Positions 4,335 through 24,435 of a stretch of 37,062 nucleotides of DNA are shown here, piece after piece (the first letter of the stretch is position 1; each line of letters starts with the position of its first letter). The stretch is from contig JBBSYR010000057.1 of NCBI GenBank assembly GCA_038045165.1, forward strand, positions 1 to 37,062. Direction: 5' to 3'. A program made the position numbers and the translations under genes. A model generated the notes under the pieces. It saw only the letters and a program-made list of their open reading frames with translations, did no database searches and was not told the DNA's origin. Source of the stretch: Nanobdellota archaeon. GTDB lineage: Archaea > Nanobdellota > Nanobdellia > Pacearchaeales > GW2011-AR1.

Positions 4335-4820
4335 ATGAAAAAAAAGGGACAGTTCTTTTTAGCTGCTGCATTGATTTTAGTAAGCATTCTTATAGGAATA
4401 GGAGGAATTTATAGTGATATTTCAATACCCAAGGAAGATACGCGGGTTAATCAGTTGGCAAAGGAGATAAAATACGAATGCGCGCAGACACTAAACTATG
4501 CAGCTTTCCAAGAACTGAATTCTGAAGATACTTTAAAAGTTATTCAATCTCTTGTTGGAGATTATTCAAAATTAAATCCAGAAGTTGGAATATTTTTCTG
4601 GTTTAAATTGAAAGGTGACCCTAATTCTTTTGCGGGATATTACAAAAATGGAAAGGAGGGTGTTAGTTTTATTAAAGCAATAGAAGAATCAAGCAAAGTG
4701 ATTATTCAAGATTCAACGCGGGGCATTTATTATAGTTTGAGTGTCACAGATAAGATTAATAACCTCTACATTTTAGTAGAAAAAGAAGATGCAAATGGCA
4801 GGACATTTGATGTTCAATAA
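4335..4820 (+). CDS. archaeal type IV pilin-like protein (class III signal peptide)
   Basis: N-terminus MKKKGQ/FFLAAALILVSILIGIGG has a basic stretch, then G, then a hydrophobic helix, typical of prepilin-peptidase substrates. 161 aa. Overlaps the next gene by 11 nt. Confidence 0.6.
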   Translation: MKKKGQFFLAAALILVSILIGIGGIYSDISIPKEDTRVNQLAKEIKYECAQTLNYAAFQELNSEDTLKVIQSLVGDYSKLNPEVGIFFWFKLKGDPNSFAGYYKNGKEGVSFIKAIEESSKVIIQDSTRGIYYSLSVTDKINNLYILVEKEDANGRTFDVQ

Positions 4821-6321
4821 AAAAGGCATAAGTGAAATGATTGGTTATGTACTGCTTATAGTTATAGCTCTTAGCTTAAGTGTTTTAGTTTATATTTATC
4901 TTGAAAAATTGACTCCGAAAGGGAAAATAGAATGTCCTGAAGGAGTAAGTATCAGTATCAGAACAGCAGAATGCAACTCAGAAACAAACCAATTAAAACT
5001 TGAATTTTTTAATAATGGTTTGTTTAAAGTAGATGGGGTTTATGTGAAACTTGGTCAGGAAAGAAAAAGCACACGCACTAACTTAAATGACCCTGAAGAT
5101 GAACAAACTGGAAAAAATCCTTTTTATATGTCCTTAGAGCCGCAGAAAGCATTTAGCCAGACTTATAATCTTGCAAGAATATTTGATGTTGAAGATAATA
5201 ATATTTATATTTTAGATTTACAGCCGGCAATTGCTGAAAAAGATGGACCGCGCCTTGCTGTTTGTGAAGGAACAACTATCTCGCAGAAAATAACCTGCAA
5301 ACCTACGGCAGCAGGTGGAACACCTCCAGGTTCTGGCAGTGGAACGTCTCCAGCAACGCCCTCTATAACTATTGATTCTCCAACTAGCGGCGACACATTC
5401 ATTGGAAATGCCGGCACAATTATTAATATTGTATGGTCTACACAAAATTGGCCTGCTAGTATAACTGAAGTTAACATTGAGCTTATTGACACTGCGACTA
5501 ATTTAGCGATTCCTATTGGGAAATATCCAAATAATGGTTTATTTAAATTAAATATCGACCCTGCTCGAACTACTACTAAGACACATCGGATTCGCGTCTA
5601 TGCTGTAAAAGAAGGAGAACTTGCTCCAGGAGAGCAAGGCACCAGCGAGATATTTACTATTTCAGCAGGTTCATGCTACAATAATATTAAAGATCCAGGT
5701 GAAAGGGGAGTAGATTGCGGCGGACCTTGCTCTGCATGTATAACCTTAGAATTTACTGCAGATATTAATGATGCTAGTATACGTGGATATGCTTCAGATT
5801 ATTCAACAGCGAGAAGCACATCATCTAGCAGATCATATAATTATGAAGGAGGCATCTATACGCCTCTTACTGTAGGGCAGTATTTTATGAGTAGCAGTTA
5901 TAGTATCCAAAGGGTATTTTACAAGTTTGATACAAGTTTAATTCCTGATAATGCCATAATTTCACAGGTCAAATTTAAAACTAAAATAAGTGATAGTTCT
6001 TTCACTAATGATTTTGATATTCAAATAGTAAAATATAATTGGGAGGCACAAGAGTCGTTTTATCCAACAACAAAGATTCAAGAGGCTTATATTGGATGTT
6101 TAAATGCCCTTGCTGATGACAATATTTTGACAAGCACGTTAGGCATTTCTACAGGTGTTGAATATACAAGCGGTAATCTTGATATTACAAGAGTAAACAA
6201 AATAGGAAATACATATTACTGCTTGCGAAGCAGCAGAGATAACGGGAATACAGCGCCAACAGGTGGTGAATATGTATCTCTTGCTCGCCCAACTTTAGAG
6301 GTTACTTATACTACTCCTTAA
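4810..6321 (+). CDS. pilin-like N-terminus fused to an adhesin-like ectodomain (Ig-like module A + beta-sandwich module B)
   Basis: MFNKKGISEMIGYVLLIVIALSL resembles the archaeal pilin/archaellin N-terminal domain. ATG 4810 is preferred over the track start 4789 because it places the basic-G motif at the N-terminus. Also has a GSGSGT linker, a module shared with the 9799..12210 gene, and a GERGVDCGGPCSAC knot. Confidence 0.75.
   Translation: MFNKKGISEMIGYVLLIVIALSLSVLVYIYLEKLTPKGKIECPEGVSISIRTAECNSETNQLKLEFFNNGLFKVDGVYVKLGQERKSTRTNLNDPEDEQTGKNPFYMSLEPQKAFSQTYNLARIFDVEDNNIYILDLQPAIAEKDGPRLAVCEGTTISQKITCKPTAAGGTPPGSGSGTSPATPSITIDSPTSGDTFIGNAGTIINIVWSTQNWPASITEVNIELIDTATNLAIPIGKYPNNGLFKLNIDPARTTTKTHRIRVYAVKEGELAPGEQGTSEIFTISAGSCYNNIKDPGERGVDCGGPCSACITLEFTADINDASIRGYASDYSTARSTSSSRSYNYEGGIYTPLTVGQYFMSSSYSIQRVFYKFDTSLIPDNAIISQVKFKTKISDSSFTNDFDIQIVKYNWEAQESFYPTTKIQEAYIGCLNALADDNILTSTLGISTGVEYTSGNLDITRVNKIGNTYYCLRSSRDNGNTAPTGGEYVSLARPTLEVTYTTP
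5356..5670 (+). repeat. module A, copy 1 (315 nt, near-identical to 10471..10785)
   Basis: Hand alignment is colinear without indels. The core 5443..5555 differs from 10558..10670 at 3 of 113 positions. Confidence 0.9.
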
Positions 6322-6381
6322 GACATTTGCACATGCAAGCCTAAAAACTTTGACATTTATTCAAAACTCACCACAATAATG

Positions 6382-6389
6382 TATAAATA
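6382..6389 (+). promoter_or_regulatory. TATA box (TATAAATA) for mre11-rad50
   Basis: Starts 29 nt upstream of the ATG at 6411. Confidence 0.45.
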
Positions 6390-6410
6390 ACATCTATTCT
6401 GAGGAGATTT

Positions 6411-7559
6411 ATGAAATTTGCGCATATGGGTGACTGCCATCTTGGCGGATGGAGACAGCCAGAATTGAGGGAATTGAATCTAAGAAGTTTTCAATTTGCT
6501 ATTGAAAAATGCATTAAAGAGAGGGTTGATTTTATTCTTATCTCTGGAGATTTGCTGGACTCAGCCTATCCTTCAATTGAGACTCTTAAAGAAACATTTG
6601 GCGAGTTTAGAAAAATAAAAGAAGCGAATATTCCTGTTTTTATAATTGCTGGCAGCCATGATTATTCTGTCTCGGGAAAATCTTTTTTAGATGTGCTTGA
6701 AAAAGCAGGATTTTGCAAAAATGTTTCCTTGTTCGAAGAAAGAAACGGCAAGATTATGCTGCACCCCACTATCATGGGCAATGTTGCTATTTACGGCTAT
6801 CCTGGAAAAAAATCAGGCATGGAAACAAAAGATATTGAAAGAATAAAACTGCACGATTCGCCCGGGCTTTTTAGAATCTTAATGCTGCACACTGCGCTCA
6901 GAGATGCTGTTGGAAATTTGCCGATTGATGCTGTAGACCATAAAATGCTGCCAGATGTTGATTATTTGGCTTTATCACATTTGCATATTAATTATCAAAA
7001 AGAAAAAAGAGTTTATTCTGGTCCAATATTTCCAAACAACCTGCCTGAATTAGAAGAACTAAAGGGCGGCTCGTTCTGGATATTTGATAATGGAAAGATA
7101 AGAAGAGAAGAAATAAAATTGAAGGATGTTCTTGTAATAAATTCTGAATTGGAAGATGCCTTCAAAGCAGCTGAAGAAATAATTTCCTTATTTGAAAAGG
7201 AAATCTTAAGAGATAAAATTGTACTGCTGAAATTATGGGGTATTTTGAAAAAAGGAAAAACCAGTGATATAGATTTTCAGAAAATAGAGGAGTATATGAA
7301 GAAAAAAAGTGTTTTTGTTTTTTTAAAAAGCACGAGCAAGCTTCATGTAAATGAGCCCGAGATAAAAATGGACCATTTAGACCCTGCAAACATAGAAGAG
7401 CAAATAATAAAAAGATTTGAAGAAACCAATCCTAATAAATATAATTCAATTGTTCCTTTTCTTATGAAAGCTCTGCAGATTGAGAAGCTTGAAGATGAAA
7501 AAAGCCAAGCTTTTGAAGAAAGAGTATTGTCAGAAACTAAAAAAATACTTCAAATATGA
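6411..7559 (+). CDS. mre11: DNA double-strand-break repair nuclease Mre11
   Basis: Calcineurin-like phosphoesterase motifs (HMGDCHLG, SGDLLD, AGSHD, MLHT, LSHLH). ATGA overlap with rad50. Confidence 0.9.
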   Translation: MKFAHMGDCHLGGWRQPELRELNLRSFQFAIEKCIKERVDFILISGDLLDSAYPSIETLKETFGEFRKIKEANIPVFIIAGSHDYSVSGKSFLDVLEKAGFCKNVSLFEERNGKIMLHPTIMGNVAIYGYPGKKSGMETKDIERIKLHDSPGLFRILMLHTALRDAVGNLPIDAVDHKMLPDVDYLALSHLHINYQKEKRVYSGPIFPNNLPELEELKGGSFWIFDNGKIRREEIKLKDVLVINSELEDAFKAAEEIISLFEKEILRDKIVLLKLWGILKKGKTSDIDFQKIEEYMKKKSVFVFLKSTSKLHVNEPEIKMDHLDPANIEEQIIKRFEETNPNKYNSIVPFLMKALQIEKLEDEKSQAFEERVLSETKKILQI

Positions 7560-9622
7560 AACTAAAAAAAATAAAACTGAAAAATATTAGAAGTTATGAA
7601 GAACAGGAATTTAATTTTCCTGATGGGTCTTTGCTTTTATCTGGTGATGTTGGCTCTGGAAAAACATCAGTATTACTAGCTATAGAGTATGCCTTTTTTG
7701 GCCTGCAGCCTGGACAAACAGGCTCTGCTCTTTTGAGAAACAATTGCGCTGTTGGGGAGGTTTTGCTGGAACTTGAAATTGAAGGGCGCAACATCGTGAT
7801 AGAGCGAAAATTAAAAAAAGGGCAAAAGTCAATAGTTAATGACTATGCTTCAATAACCATCGACGGCGAAAAGGAAGAGTGCTCTATTACTGAACTAAAA
7901 ACAAGAATCCTCAATATCCTGGCATACCCGCCGGAATTCATAAAAAAGAATAATCTTCTTTATAAATACACAGTATACACGCCGCAGGAACAGATGAAGC
8001 AGATAATTCTTGAGGACCCCGAAACAAGGCTGAATGTTCTTAGGCATGTTTTTGGGATAGATAAATACAAAATAATAAGAGAGAATTTAGGGCTTGTTTT
8101 AGCAAAATTGAAAGATGAGATAAAATTTCTGCAGATGTATATTAAGACTTTTGACCAGGACAAATCAAAGATAGAAGCGGCAAAAGAGAGGGTAAAGATA
8201 ATTGAGGGGCAGATGAAAGAAAAAGAGAAAGAACGGGTGCATAAAATAGAAAGGAGAAAAAGCTGCGAAGCAGAACTCTCTGCTCTCGAAGGGCATATAA
8301 AAGAAAAAGAAAAGCTTGAAGTGGAGTTGGAAAAAACAAAAGTTCTGACTACTGCAAAAAACGAAAATTTTTTTCAGGTAAAAAGAGAAATCGCTGAATT
8401 GCAGCGAAACCTGCAGGAATCTGGCGAGCAGTTTGAAGAAAGCAGTCTAAAAGAAATTATGCAAAAGATATTAACTAAAAGGATGAATCTTGACAATTTG
8501 AATGAGCAGCATATTGAGATTGCCAGTCAGATAAAAAATCTTGAACAATCAGGACAGGAGCTTTTAATTAAAAAAAATAGAGTATTCAGCATAGATATCT
8601 GCCCGACCTGCCTGCAGGATGTTCCAGAGGCGCATAAACATAACATTTTAAATGATACTGAAAGAACGCTGGTTGAAATAAACAAAAAATTCGGGGAATT
8701 GATGAATAAAAAAGAGGAGTCTGTGCATTCAATAGAAAAAGAAAAAATTGATTTAATTCAGCTGGAGAGTAGAAAAAATGCTTTGGAAATACTAAAATCA
8801 AAGCAAGAGAGCTATGAAAGAACTAAGAAAAAGCTTGCAGAGCTATTAAAAACAAAAGAACTGCTTGAAAAAGATATCTTAATGCTTGAAAAACATCTGG
8901 AAACAACTAAGCAGGATGTGCTGCAGTTCTTCAAATTTCATAATTTATATAAATTAAAGCAGGATGAATTGAAATCTGCCTTTGTTGATGAGAAAAACTC
9001 TGAAATATCTCTGGCTGAATTAAAAAAAGAAATAGAGATTACTAATAAAGAAATACTAATACTTGAAAAAGAGCTGGCTGAAAAAGAGAGCTCTAAAAAA
9101 AAGCTGGCTGAGCATTTGGGCTTGGTTGACTGGCTGTCGAACCAGTTTATGGCGCTCATAAACCTTACAGAAAGAAATGTTATGATTAAGTTAAGAAATG
9201 AATTTTCTAAATTGTTTGGAAAATGGTTTCATATGCTTGCTGGAGAGATATTTGATACGCAGCTTGATGAAAATTTTACTCCCTTAATAATGCAGGGAGA
9301 ATTTGAGATGGATTATTCTTTTCTTTCAGGGGGCGAGAGGACTGCTGTTGCTTTGGCTTATAGACTGGCATTGAACCAGACAATTAATTCTATAATGAGC
9401 CAGATTAAGACGAGAGATATAATTATACTTGATGAGCCAACAGATGGTTTTTCAGAAGCGCAAATAGATAAAATAAGAGATGTTTTTGAAGAGCTTAATG
9501 TTGGTCAGCTCATAATTGTGAGCCATGAGCAAAAAATAGAGAATTTTGTTGATAATGTTCTGCGATTGAAGAAAGCAAAAGATATCTCGAATATTGAGAC
9601 TATGCCTAATTTGATGCAATGA
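7556..9622 (+). CDS. rad50: DNA double-strand-break repair ATPase Rad50 (short coiled coil)
   Basis: Walker A GDVGSGKTS, central CPTC zinc hook within heptad-rich sequence, signature SGGERTAVALAYRLAL, Walker B IIILDEPT. 688 aa. Confidence 0.9.
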   Translation: MKLKKIKLKNIRSYEEQEFNFPDGSLLLSGDVGSGKTSVLLAIEYAFFGLQPGQTGSALLRNNCAVGEVLLELEIEGRNIVIERKLKKGQKSIVNDYASITIDGEKEECSITELKTRILNILAYPPEFIKKNNLLYKYTVYTPQEQMKQIILEDPETRLNVLRHVFGIDKYKIIRENLGLVLAKLKDEIKFLQMYIKTFDQDKSKIEAAKERVKIIEGQMKEKEKERVHKIERRKSCEAELSALEGHIKEKEKLEVELEKTKVLTTAKNENFFQVKREIAELQRNLQESGEQFEESSLKEIMQKILTKRMNLDNLNEQHIEIASQIKNLEQSGQELLIKKNRVFSIDICPTCLQDVPEAHKHNILNDTERTLVEINKKFGELMNKKEESVHSIEKEKIDLIQLESRKNALEILKSKQESYERTKKKLAELLKTKELLEKDILMLEKHLETTKQDVLQFFKFHNLYKLKQDELKSAFVDEKNSEISLAELKKEIEITNKEILILEKELAEKESSKKKLAEHLGLVDWLSNQFMALINLTERNVMIKLRNEFSKLFGKWFHMLAGEIFDTQLDENFTPLIMQGEFEMDYSFLSGGERTAVALAYRLALNQTINSIMSQIKTRDIIILDEPTDGFSEAQIDKIRDVFEELNVGQLIIVSHEQKIENFVDNVLRLKKAKDISNIETMPNLMQ

Positions 9623-9769
9623 AGTTTCTCGCAGCAAACTACTGGGTATTAGGAGATAAAACCGATTCTTATTTTTAATATCCTATCAACCAAATAAGAA
9701 AGTCAGGATTTCTTAAATAGAAGTTTGATTTTTGCAAAGTTCTCTAAAATTCTCGGCGGCCAAATAAGA

Positions 9770-9777
9770 TTTATAAA
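9770..9777 (+). promoter_or_regulatory. TATA box (TTTATAAA) for the 9799 surface-protein gene
   Basis: Starts 29 nt upstream of ATG 9799. This supports 9799 rather than the TTG at 9784. Confidence 0.45.
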
Positions 9778-9798
9778 GTTGAATTGTGTCAAGTGAAG

Positions 9799-12210
9799 AT
9801 GAATGTTGATAGAAAAAGAGGGGCTGCGAAGCGCATTTTTTTACGGCTCTTTGTTTTAGCATTTGTTTTTATTATTCCTTACTCCCTTGCAGCAAGTGCC
9901 GCTATCACCGTAGAATTTATTGGAAGCACAACTGAAGATGCAAGCATATATGGGTCGGGGACTGATTACTCCATAGTCAAAAGCGCATCATATGGCTATA
10001 GCCCAACATCCAATACAGATATCATAGGGCAATATCTCTCAGGCAGTAGTTATATGCTCTACAGAACATTTTACAAGTTCGATACAAGTTCAATTCCTGA
10101 TGATGCATCAATTTCACAGGCCAATCTTAAAACTGAGATAGCTGGCGATTTTTCTACCACAGATTTTGGCATTCAAATAGTAAAATACGACTGGTCAAGT
10201 TCAACGCCCTTTAGCGATTTAGTTAAAAGAGAAGATGCTTATGATAATTGTTTAAGCGGGAATTATGACAATCTCTGGCAAAACACGAACGGTTTATCTG
10301 CGAATACTCAATATACAAGTGGAAATCTTGATATTACAAGAGTAAGCAAAACAGGAAATACTTATTACTGCTTGCGAAGCAGCAATGATGGGGTAGCACC
10401 TGCAGGTTTAGAATTTGTCTTCCTTAAACCCCCAGTTTTAAGCGTTACTTATATTCCTTCTGCTGGTGGAACGCCCTCTATAACTATTACTTCTCCAACT
10501 GCGGGTCAGACATTCATCGGAAATAGAGGTGCAAGTATTGATGTTACTTGGACTACGCAAAATTGGCCTGCTAGTATAACTGAAGTTAATATTGAGCTTA
10601 TTGACACTGCGACTAATGTAGCGATTCCTATTGGGAAATATCCAAATAATGATTTATTTAAATTAAATATTAACACTGCTCAAACTACTACTAAGACCTA
10701 TCGAATTCATATCTATGCTGCAAAAGAAGGAGAACTTGCTCCAGGAGAGGAAAGCACCAGCGGAATCTTCACTATTTCCGCAGCTTCTTGTGCAGATGAC
10801 CAAATAATAATGCGTCTTTTCAGTTCCAGTAATAGTCATGTTTACCGATGGAGCAATACTGATGCAAATGTAAAAATTTGTTATGATGAGATATTTGGCT
10901 CTGCATACACGGGAGCTAATTCTCACGCATGCACTCCAAATGCAAATAATCCTAATAATGCAGTAGTTAGAACTTTTGGTAATCGCGCGAGCAATACTCA
11001 TGTTGAAAACCCGAGCAGCGCAACTCTTGGATATTTTCCTGCTTGTTACGGAGATTTGAATTGCAGATTAGTTTCTTCAGCTAATAATTGCGGACCTGAC
11101 CCCAAAGAAGAATTAGTTGCTTATCTCTCTAAAGAAACTAATGCTCATATTGCAAAATTTGATGCGCCCCCGAGCGCCGTTATTGGCTGGAGCAAATTGT
11201 GCTGTAAATCATCAAGCGCCCCTATAATTGCTTGCGGTGATGGCGAGAAAAAAGGCACTGAAGAGTGCGATTATGCTGCTGTGCCTGGCTCATTAAATAA
11301 TAATTGTGAGGCGGGAAAGGTTTGCGGTTCGACAGCGCCAAATAAATGCAAATGCATTTCAGTAGTTAAAACAATAAAAACTGCGATTTGGGCAGACCAG
11401 TATGAAATACCAGTAAAACAAGCTTCGCTCAATTCCCAATTGACTCTTTTGGGGACTGTAGAGGGATTTGCTCCTAACGAGAAAATTAGATTTGTAACAT
11501 ATAATTTTGAAACTCCGGAAAATAAGAAAGACCTTGGAACAGCAAGCTTCGATATTAATAATAAAGTATCTATCTCTGGCGTGCTAAGCACTTTGCTTGA
11601 TAATGCTAAAGTAGGAGATAAGTATTATTTTATATTGTCTAGTGAGAAAGGGGATGCTGGGACTTTGACTAGCGAGCCAATTGAAATTGTTTCAGATGAA
11701 ATAGGAATAAGAACTGATTTTGTAAATGAATGCGGAGAATTAAATACCCTTGATATGCCGAGTTTAACCCAAGATGAATTGATATATCGATGCAATACTG
11801 CTCTAGCAAGTGCAAGCTATCTTAAAGAGCCAAGTACTTGCAGAGATGGAACTGAAATAGTAAAATGCAAATGGGATGAGACTAATCAAAAGTGCGTGAA
11901 CTTAGTAACTCGTAAAAATGGAGCACTTATGGGAACTTGCGCATATTCAGTTAAATCCTCTGGAAAATGCGATGAAAAGACAAAGATGAAAACAATTGAG
12001 CTTGAGACTTTATATGAGGGTGCTGAAGAATGCAGGGATTGTATTGCAGAATCAAAAGTGCCCTGCGGAAGGTCTTTATTAGCTTTGCCATTTTTTCAAG
12101 GATGGCAAATAGTAATAAGCATATTAATAATAAGTGCAGTCTATTTTATTACTGCTCGAAGGAAAAGGCATATAGTCAACGACCTTAAAATCTCCCCATT
12201 TTGTCGTTGA
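9799..12210 (+). CDS. large secreted, Cys-rich surface protein (modules B then A, N[STA]H repeats, CGDG..EECD motif, C-terminal anchor)
   Basis: Signal peptide (FVLAFVFIIPYSLAASA). N-terminal module B and module A are paralogous to the 4810 gene. Three N[STA]H/Cys repeats, ACGDGEKKGTEECD, and a C-terminal TM followed by RRKRH. Confidence 0.8.
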   Translation: MNVDRKRGAAKRIFLRLFVLAFVFIIPYSLAASAAITVEFIGSTTEDASIYGSGTDYSIVKSASYGYSPTSNTDIIGQYLSGSSYMLYRTFYKFDTSSIPDDASISQANLKTEIAGDFSTTDFGIQIVKYDWSSSTPFSDLVKREDAYDNCLSGNYDNLWQNTNGLSANTQYTSGNLDITRVSKTGNTYYCLRSSNDGVAPAGLEFVFLKPPVLSVTYIPSAGGTPSITITSPTAGQTFIGNRGASIDVTWTTQNWPASITEVNIELIDTATNVAIPIGKYPNNDLFKLNINTAQTTTKTYRIHIYAAKEGELAPGEESTSGIFTISAASCADDQIIMRLFSSSNSHVYRWSNTDANVKICYDEIFGSAYTGANSHACTPNANNPNNAVVRTFGNRASNTHVENPSSATLGYFPACYGDLNCRLVSSANNCGPDPKEELVAYLSKETNAHIAKFDAPPSAVIGWSKLCCKSSSAPIIACGDGEKKGTEECDYAAVPGSLNNNCEAGKVCGSTAPNKCKCISVVKTIKTAIWADQYEIPVKQASLNSQLTLLGTVEGFAPNEKIRFVTYNFETPENKKDLGTASFDINNKVSISGVLSTLLDNAKVGDKYYFILSSEKGDAGTLTSEPIEIVSDEIGIRTDFVNECGELNTLDMPSLTQDELIYRCNTALASASYLKEPSTCRDGTEIVKCKWDETNQKCVNLVTRKNGALMGTCAYSVKSSGKCDEKTKMKTIELETLYEGAEECRDCIAESKVPCGRSLLALPFFQGWQIVISILIISAVYFITARRKRHIVNDLKISPFCR
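10471..10785 (+). repeat. module A, copy 2 (315 nt, near-identical to 5356..5670)
   Basis: Same alignment as described for copy 1. Direct orientation, 5.1 kb apart. Confidence 0.9.
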
Positions 12211-14988: not shown

Positions 14989-15627
14989 ATGCTAAGAATA
15001 TTAAGAGACTTTTCAAAAAGAATGCTGAGAAGCTTATTTGGGAAAAAAGAAAGCATAAAAATTGGCTTTTATGGCCCGCCGAATGCAGGAAAAACAAGCC
15101 TCGCCAATAGAATCTGCAAAGACTGGACTGGTGAAGATATCGGGGTTGTAAGCAGAGTGCCTCATGAAACAAGGCATGTCCAGTTCAAAGAAAAAGTTGA
15201 GATAAAACATAAAGGAAAAAGTTTAATATTTAAATTAATAGACACTCCGGGAATAGCGACTAAAATAGATTATGAAAATTTTCTTCATTATGGTATAAAA
15301 AAGGGCGAGGCAAAAAAAAGAGCTAAGGAAGCTACGCAGGGGATCATAGAATCAATTCAATGGCTTGATGACATGAACGCTGTTGTGATAGTGCTTGATG
15401 CTTCTGAAAATCCATACTCCCAAGTGAATATTACAATTATCGGCAATCTTGTTGCCCGAAAGATTCCTGTTCTTATAGTCGCCAATAAAATTGATTTGAA
15501 GAAAGCAGAAGTGAAAAAGGTTGAATCTGCATTTCCAGAGTATGATGTTATTGGCATTTCGGCAAAAGAAGGTATAAATATCGAAGAGTTTTATGAAGCA
15601 TTGTTTAGATTAGCAAAAAAAGTATGA
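14989..15627 (+). CDS. small GTP-binding protein (TRAFAC-class GTPase)
   Basis: G1 GPPNAGKTS, G3 DTPG, G4 NKID, G5 SAK. 212 aa. Confidence 0.85.
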   Translation: MLRILRDFSKRMLRSLFGKKESIKIGFYGPPNAGKTSLANRICKDWTGEDIGVVSRVPHETRHVQFKEKVEIKHKGKSLIFKLIDTPGIATKIDYENFLHYGIKKGEAKKRAKEATQGIIESIQWLDDMNAVVIVLDASENPYSQVNITIIGNLVARKIPVLIVANKIDLKKAEVKKVESAFPEYDVIGISAKEGINIEEFYEALFRLAKKV

Positions 15628-16013
15628 AATATAAAAAATTAAGAGGCTTGAGCTTGCAGGTTATTCCGTTCACAGAGATAGAAAAGCTTAGCATTTCAGA
15701 AAGAGTGAAAAAGGTTTTGAATCTTGTATTAAGCAACAAGATAGTGATAATCCACGGCAGACTTCGAGCCGAAGAGGAAGCGCGGTTGATTGAGGATACT
15801 ATGGCTCTTGTTGACCATGTAAAGAACTTCAAAGGAATTGAGCTGGCAGTCATAGAGCCGGACTTAAAAGATAAGGGCGTGTTTGAGAAGTTCAAGCACG
15901 GCTTGGCGAAAAGGCTTGTTGGGGACAGCGAGGCGCTTACTGTTGTTGGGCCTTCATCAATTGTCAAGGAGATTAAGCGCGATCCGAGAAAGATTGAATT
16001 GTTTTTGAGTTAG
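15624..16013 (+). CDS. conserved archaeal protein, DUF2073-like
   Basis: ATGA-coupled to the GTPase. 129 aa. The pattern ...IVIIHGRLRAEEEARLIEDTM...FKGIEL fits my recollection of DUF2073, which usually sits beside this GTPase. Not verified by search. Confidence 0.55.
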   Translation: MKYKKLRGLSLQVIPFTEIEKLSISERVKKVLNLVLSNKIVIIHGRLRAEEEARLIEDTMALVDHVKNFKGIELAVIEPDLKDKGVFEKFKHGLAKRLVGDSEALTVVGPSSIVKEIKRDPRKIELFLS

Positions 16014-16036
16014 AACTGAGCAATCCCAAACATAAA

Positions 16037-16044
16037 TTTATTAA
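16037..16044 (+). promoter_or_regulatory. TATA box (TTTATTAA) for the Zn-ribbon gene
   Basis: Starts 29 nt upstream of the ATG at 16066. Confidence 0.4.
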
Positions 16045-16065
16045 CTTGGTTTTTTTGGTTATTAT

Positions 16066-16446
16066 ATGCCATACAAATGTGTTCATTGCCTTGAAATTTA
16101 TGAAGACGGCTCGAAGGAAATCTTGACTGGATGCACTAATTGTAAAAGCAAATTCTTTTTTTACATAAAACCTGAGAAACTGAAGGAAATTCTTGAAAGC
16201 GAGGGAAGAGAGCCAGAGCTTTCTGATGCAGAGAAAGAACAGATGGAGCAGGACGTAAGAGAAATTGCTGGCCTTGAAGAGGACGAAGAAACTCCAGTAT
16301 TCCTGGATTTTGAAAGCATACAAGTGCTCAAACCTGGCAAGTATCTTCTGGATTTAACAAAGCTATTTTCAGTCAATAAACCGAGGGTTTATCATCTCGA
16401 GGATGGAAAATATCTAGTTGATTTTACTTCAAAGACTAAGAGTTAA
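16066..16446 (+). CDS. Zn-ribbon protein (DUF2072-like)
   Basis: N-terminal CVHC...CTNC ribbon followed by an acidic linker. 126 aa. Third member of the archaeal GTPase triad as I recall it. Confidence 0.6.
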   Translation: MPYKCVHCLEIYEDGSKEILTGCTNCKSKFFFYIKPEKLKEILESEGREPELSDAEKEQMEQDVREIAGLEEDEETPVFLDFESIQVLKPGKYLLDLTKLFSVNKPRVYHLEDGKYLVDFTSKTKS

Positions 16447-17802: not shown

Positions 17803-17899
17803 TTACAGAAAACTGCGTAGCTTGTAGCACATTTTGTACGCAGTTTTCTGTCTGGAGAACTGCAACGCAGAGAGCTACAAGTAATGCAGTTATCCATAT
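17803..17899 (+). repeat. 97-nt structured repeat element, copy A
   Basis: Reverse complement of 24344..24435 apart from a 5-nt indel and 1 mismatch. Contains a perfect 15-bp hairpin (17805..17819 with 17837..17851). Confidence 0.9.
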
Positions 17900-24343: not shown

Positions 24344-24435
24344 ATATGGCTAACTGCATTACTTGTAGCTCTCTGCGTTGCAGTTCTCCAGACAGAACGT
24401 ACAAAATGTGCTACAAGCTACGCAGTTTTCTGTAA
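24344..24435 (-). repeat. 92-nt structured repeat element, copy B (inverted relative to copy A)
   Basis: Its reverse complement aligns to 17803..17899 with one 5-nt deletion and one mismatch. Confidence 0.9.

Follow-up and report, generated by a model that had tools for sequence, protein, structure and literature searches.

Why should two genes for surface proteins, one on each side of mre11-rad50, carry the same two protein modules in opposite order, and why should short patches of these otherwise diverged copies be almost identical? The question is raised by a stretch of chromosomal DNA from a groundwater DPANN archaeon (Nanobdellota archaeon, assembly GCA_038045165.1, contig JBBSYR010000057.1), whose whole length of 37,062 nucleotides (nt) is called the window here. 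Within it, gene 1 (AABX07_01965) and gene 2 (AABX07_01980) each hold one copy of a module A and one of a module B, designated A1 and B1 in gene 1 and A2 and B2 in gene 2. A first interpretation, made from the DNA letters without database searches and referred to below as the sequence-only reading, had described these as adhesin modules undergoing ongoing exchange. The explanation that we consider probable combines a modular pilin (gene 1), shuffling of modules between it and gene 2, a later gene conversion of about 110 nt within A, constraint within B, and inherited synteny with mre11-rad50.

Paralogous modules in swapped order

BLASTP of gene 1 against gene 2 returned two separate alignments, one for A at 76-78% identity (E 1e-51) and one for B at 51% (E 1e-46). 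The order differs between the genes: A (amino acids [aa] 190-296) precedes B (aa 315-507) in gene 1, and B (aa 38-223) precedes A (aa 230-336) in gene 2. A direct-repeat search recovered the same modules at spacings of 5115, 4152, and 4149 nt, each a multiple of 3. Both analyses bear out the claim of the sequence-only reading that these are true paralogous modules in swapped order, all of them direct repeats, and its figures were reproduced throughout. The two A copies (5356-5670 and 10471-10785) are colinear and in frame, with 44 mismatches in 315 nt (86% DNA identity). The core of A (5443-5555 vs. 10558-10670) differs at 3 of 113 nt and the remainder at 41 of 202, while a patch within B (6162-6235 vs. 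10311-10384) differs at 5 of 74.

Each module is present exactly twice in the window, both times within a full-length gene, and the copies are mutual closest relatives. B1 and B2 are 51% identical, against at most 42% to anything else in a search of 5.8 billion proteins, and A1 and A2 are 78% identical, against 64-68% to P0009, a protein of a related genome (L004, GCA_053535275.1). The features of the locus are collected in Table 1.

Table 1. Positions of the genes, modules, and shorter segments discussed in the text (window coordinates)
Feature	Position	Strand	Basis or remark
pil0, small pilin-like gene, first of a conserved pilin pair	4335..4820	+	MKKKG/QFFLAAALILVSIL: class III signal and hydrophobic helix
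Gene 1 (AABX07_01965), probable modular type IV pilin; modules in order: pilin, linker, A, Cys-rich motif, B	4810..6321	+	NCBI: 503-aa protein
Gene 1 pilin module (aa 1-163), ends at the last of four invariant Cys	4810..5298	+	30-ortholog alignment
Gly/Ser/Pro/Thr-rich linker KPTAAGGTPPGSGSGTSPA, 19 aa, pilin module to A	5299..5355	+	Without counterpart in short orthologs
Module A copy 1 (A1), immunoglobulin (Ig)-like	5356..5676	+	86% DNA and 78% protein identity to A2
Well-supported conversion tract in A1 (core in the sequence-only reading: 5443-5555)	5445..5551	+	Three-way comparison with L004
Cys-rich mini-motif SCYNNIKDPGERGVDCGGPCSAC, A-B linker, 81-nt copy-number polymorphism	5671..5751 (in assembly L001, 5671-5832)	+	Assembly comparison
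Module B copy 1 (B1), DNRLRE/CBM96-like beta-sandwich	5731..6315	+	51% protein identity to B2
Conserved-motif patch of B1, YTSGNLDITRVNKIGNTYYCLRSS	6162..6235	+	Constraint
mre11	6411..7559	+	Pfam Metallophos, E 6e-12; best NCBIfam matches are archaeal Mre11 models
rad50, start overlaps the mre11 stop	7556..9622	+	Pfam AAA_23, SMC_N, SbcC_Walker_B; best NCBIfam matches are archaeal Rad50 models
Gene 2 (AABX07_01980): signal peptide, B, A, Cys-rich stalk, transmembrane helix	9799..12210	+	NCBI: 803-aa protein
Module B copy 2 (B2), immediately behind the signal peptide	9895..10452	+	BLASTP, homolog alignment, DNRLRE match
Module A copy 2 (A2), orthologous to A of P0009	10471..10791	+	68% protein identity, same position relative to the stalk
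Well-supported conversion tract in A2, counterpart of the A1 tract	10560..10666	+	Three-way comparison with L004
Gene 2 C-terminal anchor: ...VPCGRSLLALPFF, transmembrane helix, basic tail	12082..12207	+	Read from sequences; motif common to P0009, P0010, P0011, and the L005 ortholog

A short conversion tract in module A

The sequence-only reading had taken near-identical patches inside diverged paralogs as a sign of gene conversion, and for the core of A this argument stands. By permutation, a 113-nt window holding three or fewer of the 44 A mismatches is found with p = 1.5e-4. Synonymous divergence between A1 and A2 (pS) is 0.04 in the core and 0.35 elsewhere, and codons for the same residue differ in 1 of 34 cases in the core vs. 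12 of 48 outside it (p = 0.006, Fisher, in a window chosen post hoc).

The genome that carries P0009, L004, is the sole reasonably close outgroup for module A; no other close relative of A was found in scans of GTDB genomes or JGI metagenomes. Sites at which A1 equals A2 and L004 differs make up 27 of the 30 variable sites within 5445-5551 vs. 21 of 64 outside, and in a maximum chi-square scan none of 2000 permutations attained the value seen in the data (p ≤ 0.0005). Both the three-way comparison and the permutation test on windows find that divergence along A is not uniform. In the core, the distance per site is 0.029 between A1 and A2, 0.269 between A1 and L004, and 0.279 between A2 and L004. 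The corresponding values are 0.265, 0.253, and 0.181 in the 5′ flank, where A2 is nearer than A1 to the L004 ortholog, and 0.168, 0.232, and 0.224 in the 3′ flank.

The core is also the segment of A that is most diverged from the L004 ortholog (0.27-0.36 per site), at both the protein and the DNA level, and therefore strong constraint cannot explain the identity of A1 and A2 there. Because core and flanks form a mosaic that is incongruent with the ortholog, and because synonymous divergence collapses in the core, we regard a true short gene-conversion tract of about 110 nt between gene 1 and gene 2 as well supported by these sequence comparisons. The 3′ flank of A may hold an older, partly eroded conversion event.

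Constraint in module B

For the near-identical patch in B, conversion was considered as the cause and rejected, and here the argument of the sequence-only reading fails. The patch is the best-conserved motif of the family, and its synonymous divergence is not significantly lower than that of the rest of the module (differences in 3 of 22 codons vs. 21 of 75 elsewhere, p = 0.14). Together with a block at 5896-5950 (FYKFDTS.IPD), the patch (YTSGNLDITRV.K.GNTYYCLRSS) forms the best-conserved motifs in homologs of about 40% identity (P0003-P0006). Purifying selection on a family core motif is enough to account for it.

Gene 1 as a probable modular type IV pilin

The label “adhesin” needs to be narrowed for gene 1, which is better described as a pilin with grafted modules. 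At its N-terminus (MFNKKG/ISEMIGYVLLIVIALSLSVLVYIYL) stands a signal of class III (prepilin type), and a hydrophobic helix comes next. An alignment of 30 orthologs has the same arrangement (KKG/xSE, then the hydrophobic helix), with K4, S8, Y13, and L15 nearly invariant and L16 invariant in leader and helix, and with four invariant cysteines (C42, C55, C152, and C163). Most of these orthologs stop right after C163. A regular-expression scan found the class III pattern in 38 related loci. Among NCBIfam models, the best match to the N-terminus of gene 1 is UpsA (NF046073), below cutoff at 23.7 bits (cutoff 130, E 4e-5), and the archaellin/type IV pilin N-terminal domain (TIGR02537) scores 17.3 bits for a cutoff of 20. 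An AlphaFold2 model of the pilin module, built on a two-sequence alignment and of moderate confidence (predicted local distance difference test [pLDDT] 69.6), has a helix at residues 4-34 and then a beta domain with eight strands. The rank-2 Foldseek match to this model is the archaeal type IV pilus of Pyrobaculum (8fk7; E 3.8e-3, template-modeling [TM] score 0.38-0.47).

To compare the locus with its relatives, Mre11 was used as bait in GTDB genomes, which gave 302 relatives, the best 80 of which were kept as fetched loci (species representatives); all 80 are DPANN (Pacearchaeota, Woesearchaeota, or Nanoarchaeota). The gene 1 ortholog adjoins mre11-rad50 in 40 related DPANN species, on the upstream side in 39 of them; the median ortholog has 173 aa, and A and B are lacking. 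In related species, orthologs of pil0 stand directly upstream of the gene 1 ortholog; tblastn found them at 37 fetched loci, including three that represent further assemblies of the same population (L001) or of the L005 strain (L006). The related genome L004 has two T2SSF platform genes 1.4 kb upstream of its gene 2 ortholog.

Nine of the 40 gene 1 orthologs are extended, by 140-2150 aa (L005, L018, L021, L022, L025, L030, L034, L038, and L040). Their grafts are LamG domains, tandem Ig repeats (up to 2330 aa), Cys-rich EGF-like domains, and DNRLRE-like domains (L038 and L040), with a LamG/lectin-type module in L005, L034, and L038. None of the grafts in these nine has a paralog within 10 kb at its own locus. 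Because 9 of 40 orthologs carry other grafts, the pilin C-terminus is a recurrent grafting site for binding modules across the clade, and the sharing of modules with a neighboring gene is peculiar to this genome. Gene 1 itself appears to be an ancestral short pilin onto whose C-terminus the linker, A, the Cys-rich mini-motif, and B were grafted.

Modular type IV pilins have been described in Streptococcus sanguinis, where PilB carries a vWA module and PilC a ConA-like lectin module (Raynaud et al. 2021, PMC8179133). Gene 1 has the same build, with a pilin module to C163, a linker of 19 aa, A, the Cys-rich motif, and B. Like the bacterial proteins, it has binding modules attached, by way of a short linker, to a pilin module that starts with a class III signal, and in both groups the architectures vary between species. 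However, the pilin described here is archaeal (DPANN) and known from sequence, and the bacterial survey used the bacterial prepilin signature only. A further difference is that the modules grafted here are also present in a neighboring non-pilin surface protein, with which sequence has been exchanged.

Gene 2 and the origin of the modules

Gene 2 is predicted to encode a secreted, membrane-anchored surface protein with a C-terminal anchor. Its Cys-rich region is kept in P0009, P0010, P0011, and the gene 2 ortholog of L005. The C-terminal motif of the family, VPCG(R/Q)xxxxLPFF, is followed by a transmembrane helix and a basic tail and resembles a sorting signal (cf. PGF-CTERM, archaeosortase substrates); no NCBIfam or Pfam model matched this motif.

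Two relatives of gene 2 are informative about its history. P0009 (L004) has Gly_rich_2 in the place of B, then module A (64-68% identity), and then the same stalk, and gene 2 and P0009 have downstream genes in common (the gene 3 ortholog, a GTPase gene, OapB, and OapC). In the window, the OapB and OapC homologs (PF09846 and PF09845) lie at 15624-16446 after the GTPase gene, a trio that is kept in L004. L005, a closer relative than L004, has a pilin-LamG gene, mre11, rad50, and a gene 2 ortholog of 873 aa. The latter has the stalk and anchor in common with gene 2, Gly_rich_2 instead of B, and a different Ig domain.

Because the P0009 and L005 proteins have Gly_rich_2 at the place of B, and P0009 has A together with the stalk, module A would be older in gene 2 than in gene 1 and was probably grafted from there onto the pilin. 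On the same architectures, B appears to have replaced a Gly-rich domain in gene 2, and B would be the older or the faster-evolving pair. Since the modules found at a given position differ among the orthologs of gene 1 and among those of gene 2, cassette-like domain exchange is supported on an evolutionary timescale.

The history that we propose would begin with an ancestral pilin module of about 165 aa that received A, a small Cys-rich motif, and B at its C-terminus via a flexible linker. Gene 2, which lies 3.4 kb downstream past mre11-rad50 and carries B and then A N-terminally, would have been the source from which A was copied to the pilin, and B would have taken the place of the Gly-rich domain in gene 2. 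After duplication, a conversion over a short tract (about 110 nt) would have homogenized the middle of A between both genes. The same putative ligand-binding modules would thereby be displayed on the pilus and on the cell body, an arrangement that, we infer, would suit the attachment of an episymbiont to its host.

Folds and families of the two modules

The sequence-only reading had guessed at an Ig-like, Kre9/KNH-like fold for A and a DNRLRE-like beta-sandwich for B, and both guesses gained indirect support. Searched directly against Pfam, the two A copies scored 19.6 and 22.1 bits with Big_7 (PF17957; cutoff 24.1) and had no direct match to Kre9_KNH. An exhaustive profile search with A found 227 proteins, the top ones with 13-18 tandem stretches that Pfam labels as Kre9_KNH (PF10342), that is, tandem Ig repeats. 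Module A is thus linked by profile to the Kre9_KNH/Big_7 repeats of large surface proteins, with Big_7 as its best direct Pfam match. It differs from them in scoring below every Pfam gathering score and in being present as a single copy per protein instead of a tandem array.

For B, the seven aligned sequences all have matches to NF033679 (DNRLRE domain; best E 2.5e-10) and to no other family. Scores of the window copies fall below the 34-bit cutoff, at 21.9 for B1 alone, 21.0 for the whole of gene 1, and 23.7 for the whole of gene 2 (aa 73-141). The AlphaFold2 model of B1 is a confident beta-sandwich (pLDDT 84.7) that resembles carbohydrate-binding modules (CBMs). The top Foldseek matches to it are a chondroitin-sulfate-binding CBM (8wab; E 5e-4, TM score 0.52-0.57) and an alginate-binding CBM96 (7vbo; E 3e-3, TM score 0.48-0.51), and after the CBMs come tail proteins of phage T7 and lectins. 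When PDB sequences were searched with a profile of the B family, nothing reached a significant E-value. CBM96 has been linked to the DNRLRE domain at about 30% identity (PMC9971899). The likeness of B to DNRLRE/CBM96 therefore lies in the sole family matched by all B members and in TM scores of about 0.5. The differences are that the window copies stay below the cutoff and that their nearest relatives belong to phage-like structural proteins, not enzymes.

These nearest outside relatives of B (P0003 and P0004; 38-42% identity) are encoded in phage-like structural gene clusters. A Phage_capsid_4 gene lies upstream of the P0003 gene (L088, 8001-9176), and genes for a PB4_spike/pectate-lyase tailspike and for SH3b lie alongside the P0004 gene (L087, 8001-9554); in both proteins the B relative is the C-terminal domain. 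From this context, viruses may use the same DNRLRE subfamily for receptor binding. Modules A and B themselves are probably glycan-binding, which is their putative role.

Variation in the population

Consensus assemblies were used to look at variation: the window and three further independent assemblies (L001-L003; two from ENA and one from Logan) of Hainich-type groundwater samples. L001 spans both genes fully, L002 ends at window position 10612, and L003 ends at 10587; consequently, besides the window, L001 alone has the whole of A2. The A and B copies of gene 1 and the B copy of gene 2 are reproduced in L001-L003 almost base for base (99.9-100% identity). An assembly artifact or collapse, which the sequence-only reading had named as a danger to its own observation, was rejected, as the four assemblies agree and the longest exact run between A1 and A2, 33 nt, is shorter than typical k-mers and reads.

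A unit of 81 nt aside, the four assemblies differ at only 6 single-nucleotide polymorphisms (SNPs) across the locus. One of these, at 10590 in the A2 core, is T in the window and C in L002, the alternative allele being the A1 state; it falls on one of the three differences between the A1 and A2 cores and is the only polymorphism in the A2 core, in which two assemblies besides the window reach position 10590. At 6064 in B1, the alternative allele does not match the paralog. Five SNPs separate L002 from the window, and three of them (9316, 9331, and 9365) lie within 50 nt toward the 3′ end of rad50, a cluster that may be a small recombination tract between strains.

The 81-nt unit, in the linker between A and B, is the only structural variant found among the four assemblies. 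L001 has two diverged tandem units, identical at 53 of 81 nt and encoding C..(D/N)..K(N/D)(Q/P)GE.G.DCGGPCSAC. The window, L002, and L003 have one unit, an exact chimera that starts as unit 1 at its 5′ end and switches to unit 2 within the 10-nt TAGATTGCGG. Judged from these junctions, the two-unit allele must be ancestral, and the window allele is a short-homology deletion, independent of the conversion in A, that segregates in the population. In the form C.DG..NQGE.G.DCGG.C, the Cys-rich linker motif is also found in otherwise unrelated metagenomic proteins, in about five tandem copies in P0007 and two dispersed copies in P0008, and it appears to be an unnamed mini-domain.

The ongoing exchange and surface variation that the sequence-only reading had proposed were not seen. 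None of the four near-identical assemblies has gene 1 fused with gene 2, lacks mre11-rad50, or carries a mosaic allele of A or B. No silent cassette lies in the window, and searches of databases turned up no additional proteins with a close A or B; the search with gene 1 missed gene 2, whose cluster representative there is a fragment of 44 aa, so that absence from that search is weak evidence. An exact 27-nt DNA scan of metagenomes with the A core found no relatives and no recombinant contigs, the population's own data being in ENA and not in JGI. The sole hint of exchange is the SNP at 10590, and the pattern looks like one occasional conversion event, not a programmed switching system.

Conversion and concerted evolution between paralogous surface-protein genes are well known, for example, in the opa genes and pilE/pilS of Neisseria. 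The tract in A resembles those cases in being a short stretch of near-identity, synonymous sites included, within diverged paralogs and incongruent with the ortholog. It differs from them in that the window holds no silent donor cassettes, one tract is clearly resolved, and the assemblies show no mosaicism in the population.

Linkage with mre11-rad50

The mre11 and rad50 genes are adjacent and co-oriented, and all their NCBIfam matches are under the equivalog cutoffs. Of the 80 related genomes, nearly all keep the pair if their contig reaches far enough. Within the clade whose Mre11 is at least 61% identical, 37 of 39 informative loci have a pilin-like open reading frame (ORF), or more often two, immediately upstream of mre11 and in its orientation. 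The same arrangement is present in L066, and L068 has the pilin pair directly downstream of rad50 (loci L005, L007-L046, L066, and L068; window region 4335-9622). The pilin-like pair is absent at mre11-rad50 of the more distant clade among the fetched loci.

The idea that the repeats bracket mre11-rad50 as a functional feature was rejected, as the pilin pair lies upstream also in relatives without repeats. The placement to which the sequence-only reading had attached meaning is inherited synteny, a linkage shared by 37 of 39 relatives that have no repeats. The same reading had pointed out that unequal recombination would fuse the two genes and delete mre11-rad50. The direct, in-frame geometry behind this scenario is correct, but no such variant was found. 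The pilins flanked mre11-rad50 long before the repeats arose, and the repeat copies differ by 14-50% and have no exact run in common longer than 33 nt; the scenario is purely hypothetical.

One could also imagine the linkage to be functional, with a partner-recognizing pilus co-expressed with break resection in contact-dependent DNA exchange or repair, and with its modules diversified by neighbor recombination; we think this decidedly unlikely. The Ups pili of Sulfolobales (UpsA/UpsB) are induced by ultraviolet light and mediate aggregation and DNA exchange. The likeness to them lies in UpsA being the best NCBIfam match to the N-terminus of gene 1 and in a pilin pair being linked to double-strand-break repair genes. 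However, the match reaches 23.7 bits against a cutoff of 130, no UpsE/UpsF or Ced genes were seen, and the linkage may be plain synteny.

Weighing the explanations

A number of points count against the explanation that we favor. The test for conversion has only one reasonably close outgroup, L004. The Fisher comparison of synonymous codons used a window picked after the data were seen, for which the maximum chi-square permutation corrects, again with that single outgroup. The direction of copying is read from architecture only, and the nearly star-like distances in the flanks mean that A1 could stem from a related lineage and not from the genome's own gene 2. In B, conversion is possible as well, the outgroups being too distant for a test on DNA. 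As to the pilin, no family model reaches its curated cutoff for gene 1, a Pfam scan gives no pilin match, and Foldseek with the pilin module returned no match at E ≤ 0.001 for a model whose confidence (pLDDT 69.6) is moderate. In the part of the window ORFs that was scanned, neither a prepilin peptidase nor a pilus ATPase nor a platform protein turned up. Function, including the ligand and the role in attachment, is entirely inferred.

If the modules had arisen by one old duplication without later exchange, the near-identical patches would be the most constrained parts of the domains, perhaps aided by AT-rich codon bias. This would suit B, in which the patch and the 5896-5950 block fall on motifs kept in homologs of 38-42% identity and synonymous divergence in the patch is not significantly reduced. 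It does not suit A: with 0.27-0.36 differences per site from L004, the core is the most diverged segment and so not unusually constrained, synonymous divergence drops from 0.35 to 0.04, and the segment-wise incongruence is significant. The one A ortholog at hand already points to ordinary synonymous divergence of the core between species. We therefore consider such a history unlikely. At the other extreme would be an active surface-variation system with frequent, ongoing reciprocal or cassette exchange and mosaic alleles in the population. There is indeed one conversion tract, the polymorphism in the A2 core (10590, T/C) toggles to the paralog state, and the 3′ flank of A, nearer between the paralogs (0.168) than to the ortholog (0.23), hints at an older second event. 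Likewise, the linker varies in copy number by recombination, and module content varies between species at both positions. However, the four assemblies differ at only 6 SNPs besides the 81-nt unit and have no mosaic alleles, and the two copies of each module both lie in full-length genes, the 37 kb containing no silent cassette. Homogenization is rare, given the divergence of the A flanks (17-27%) and of B at the protein level (49%), and the longest exact identity is 33 nt; we find a system of this kind quite unlikely.

The modules might instead have been acquired independently from outside, from viruses or other DPANN lineages, without being copied between the two genes. The phage-like structural clusters that encode the nearest outside relatives of B (P0003 and P0004) speak for such a source, as do the swapped order, which needs at least two events, and the nearly star-like distances among A1, A2, and L004 in the flanks. 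Against this, B1 and B2 as well as A1 and A2 are mutual closest relatives (51% vs. at most 42%, and 78% vs. 64-68%), and independent acquisition leaves the conversion tract unexplained. It seems very improbable to us.

Other features of the window

Two intergenic copies of a repeat of about 58 nt, 36 of them in an exact match, lie in inverted orientation at 17805-17862 (+) and 24380-24433 (-). The pair flanks 6.5 kb with genes for a signal-peptide peptidase, TrmB, aCPSF1/FttA, and a proteasome subunit. As RNA, the repeat is predicted to form an extended hairpin (z = -3.2), and two other assemblies of the population end inside it. It is absent from the other 88 loci; a terminator, a small mobile element, and an invertible segment are all conceivable. 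Scans of the window with Rfam and for tRNAs gave no matches.

Implications for DPANN surface proteins

The modular pilin, domain shuffling, and conversion between surface paralogs brought together in the explanation that we favor are known processes, seen here in an under-studied lineage, and no new mechanism is involved. Intragenomic conversion and a short-homology deletion are documented in an uncultivated archaeon with a reduced genome, and the recombination machinery therefore acts on surface-protein genes there. DPANN archaea depend on physical attachment to their hosts, and the proteins that make contact are largely unknown. This locus is a concrete candidate, with a pilin and a membrane-anchored surface protein that carry the same Ig-like and CBM-like modules as candidate contact proteins.

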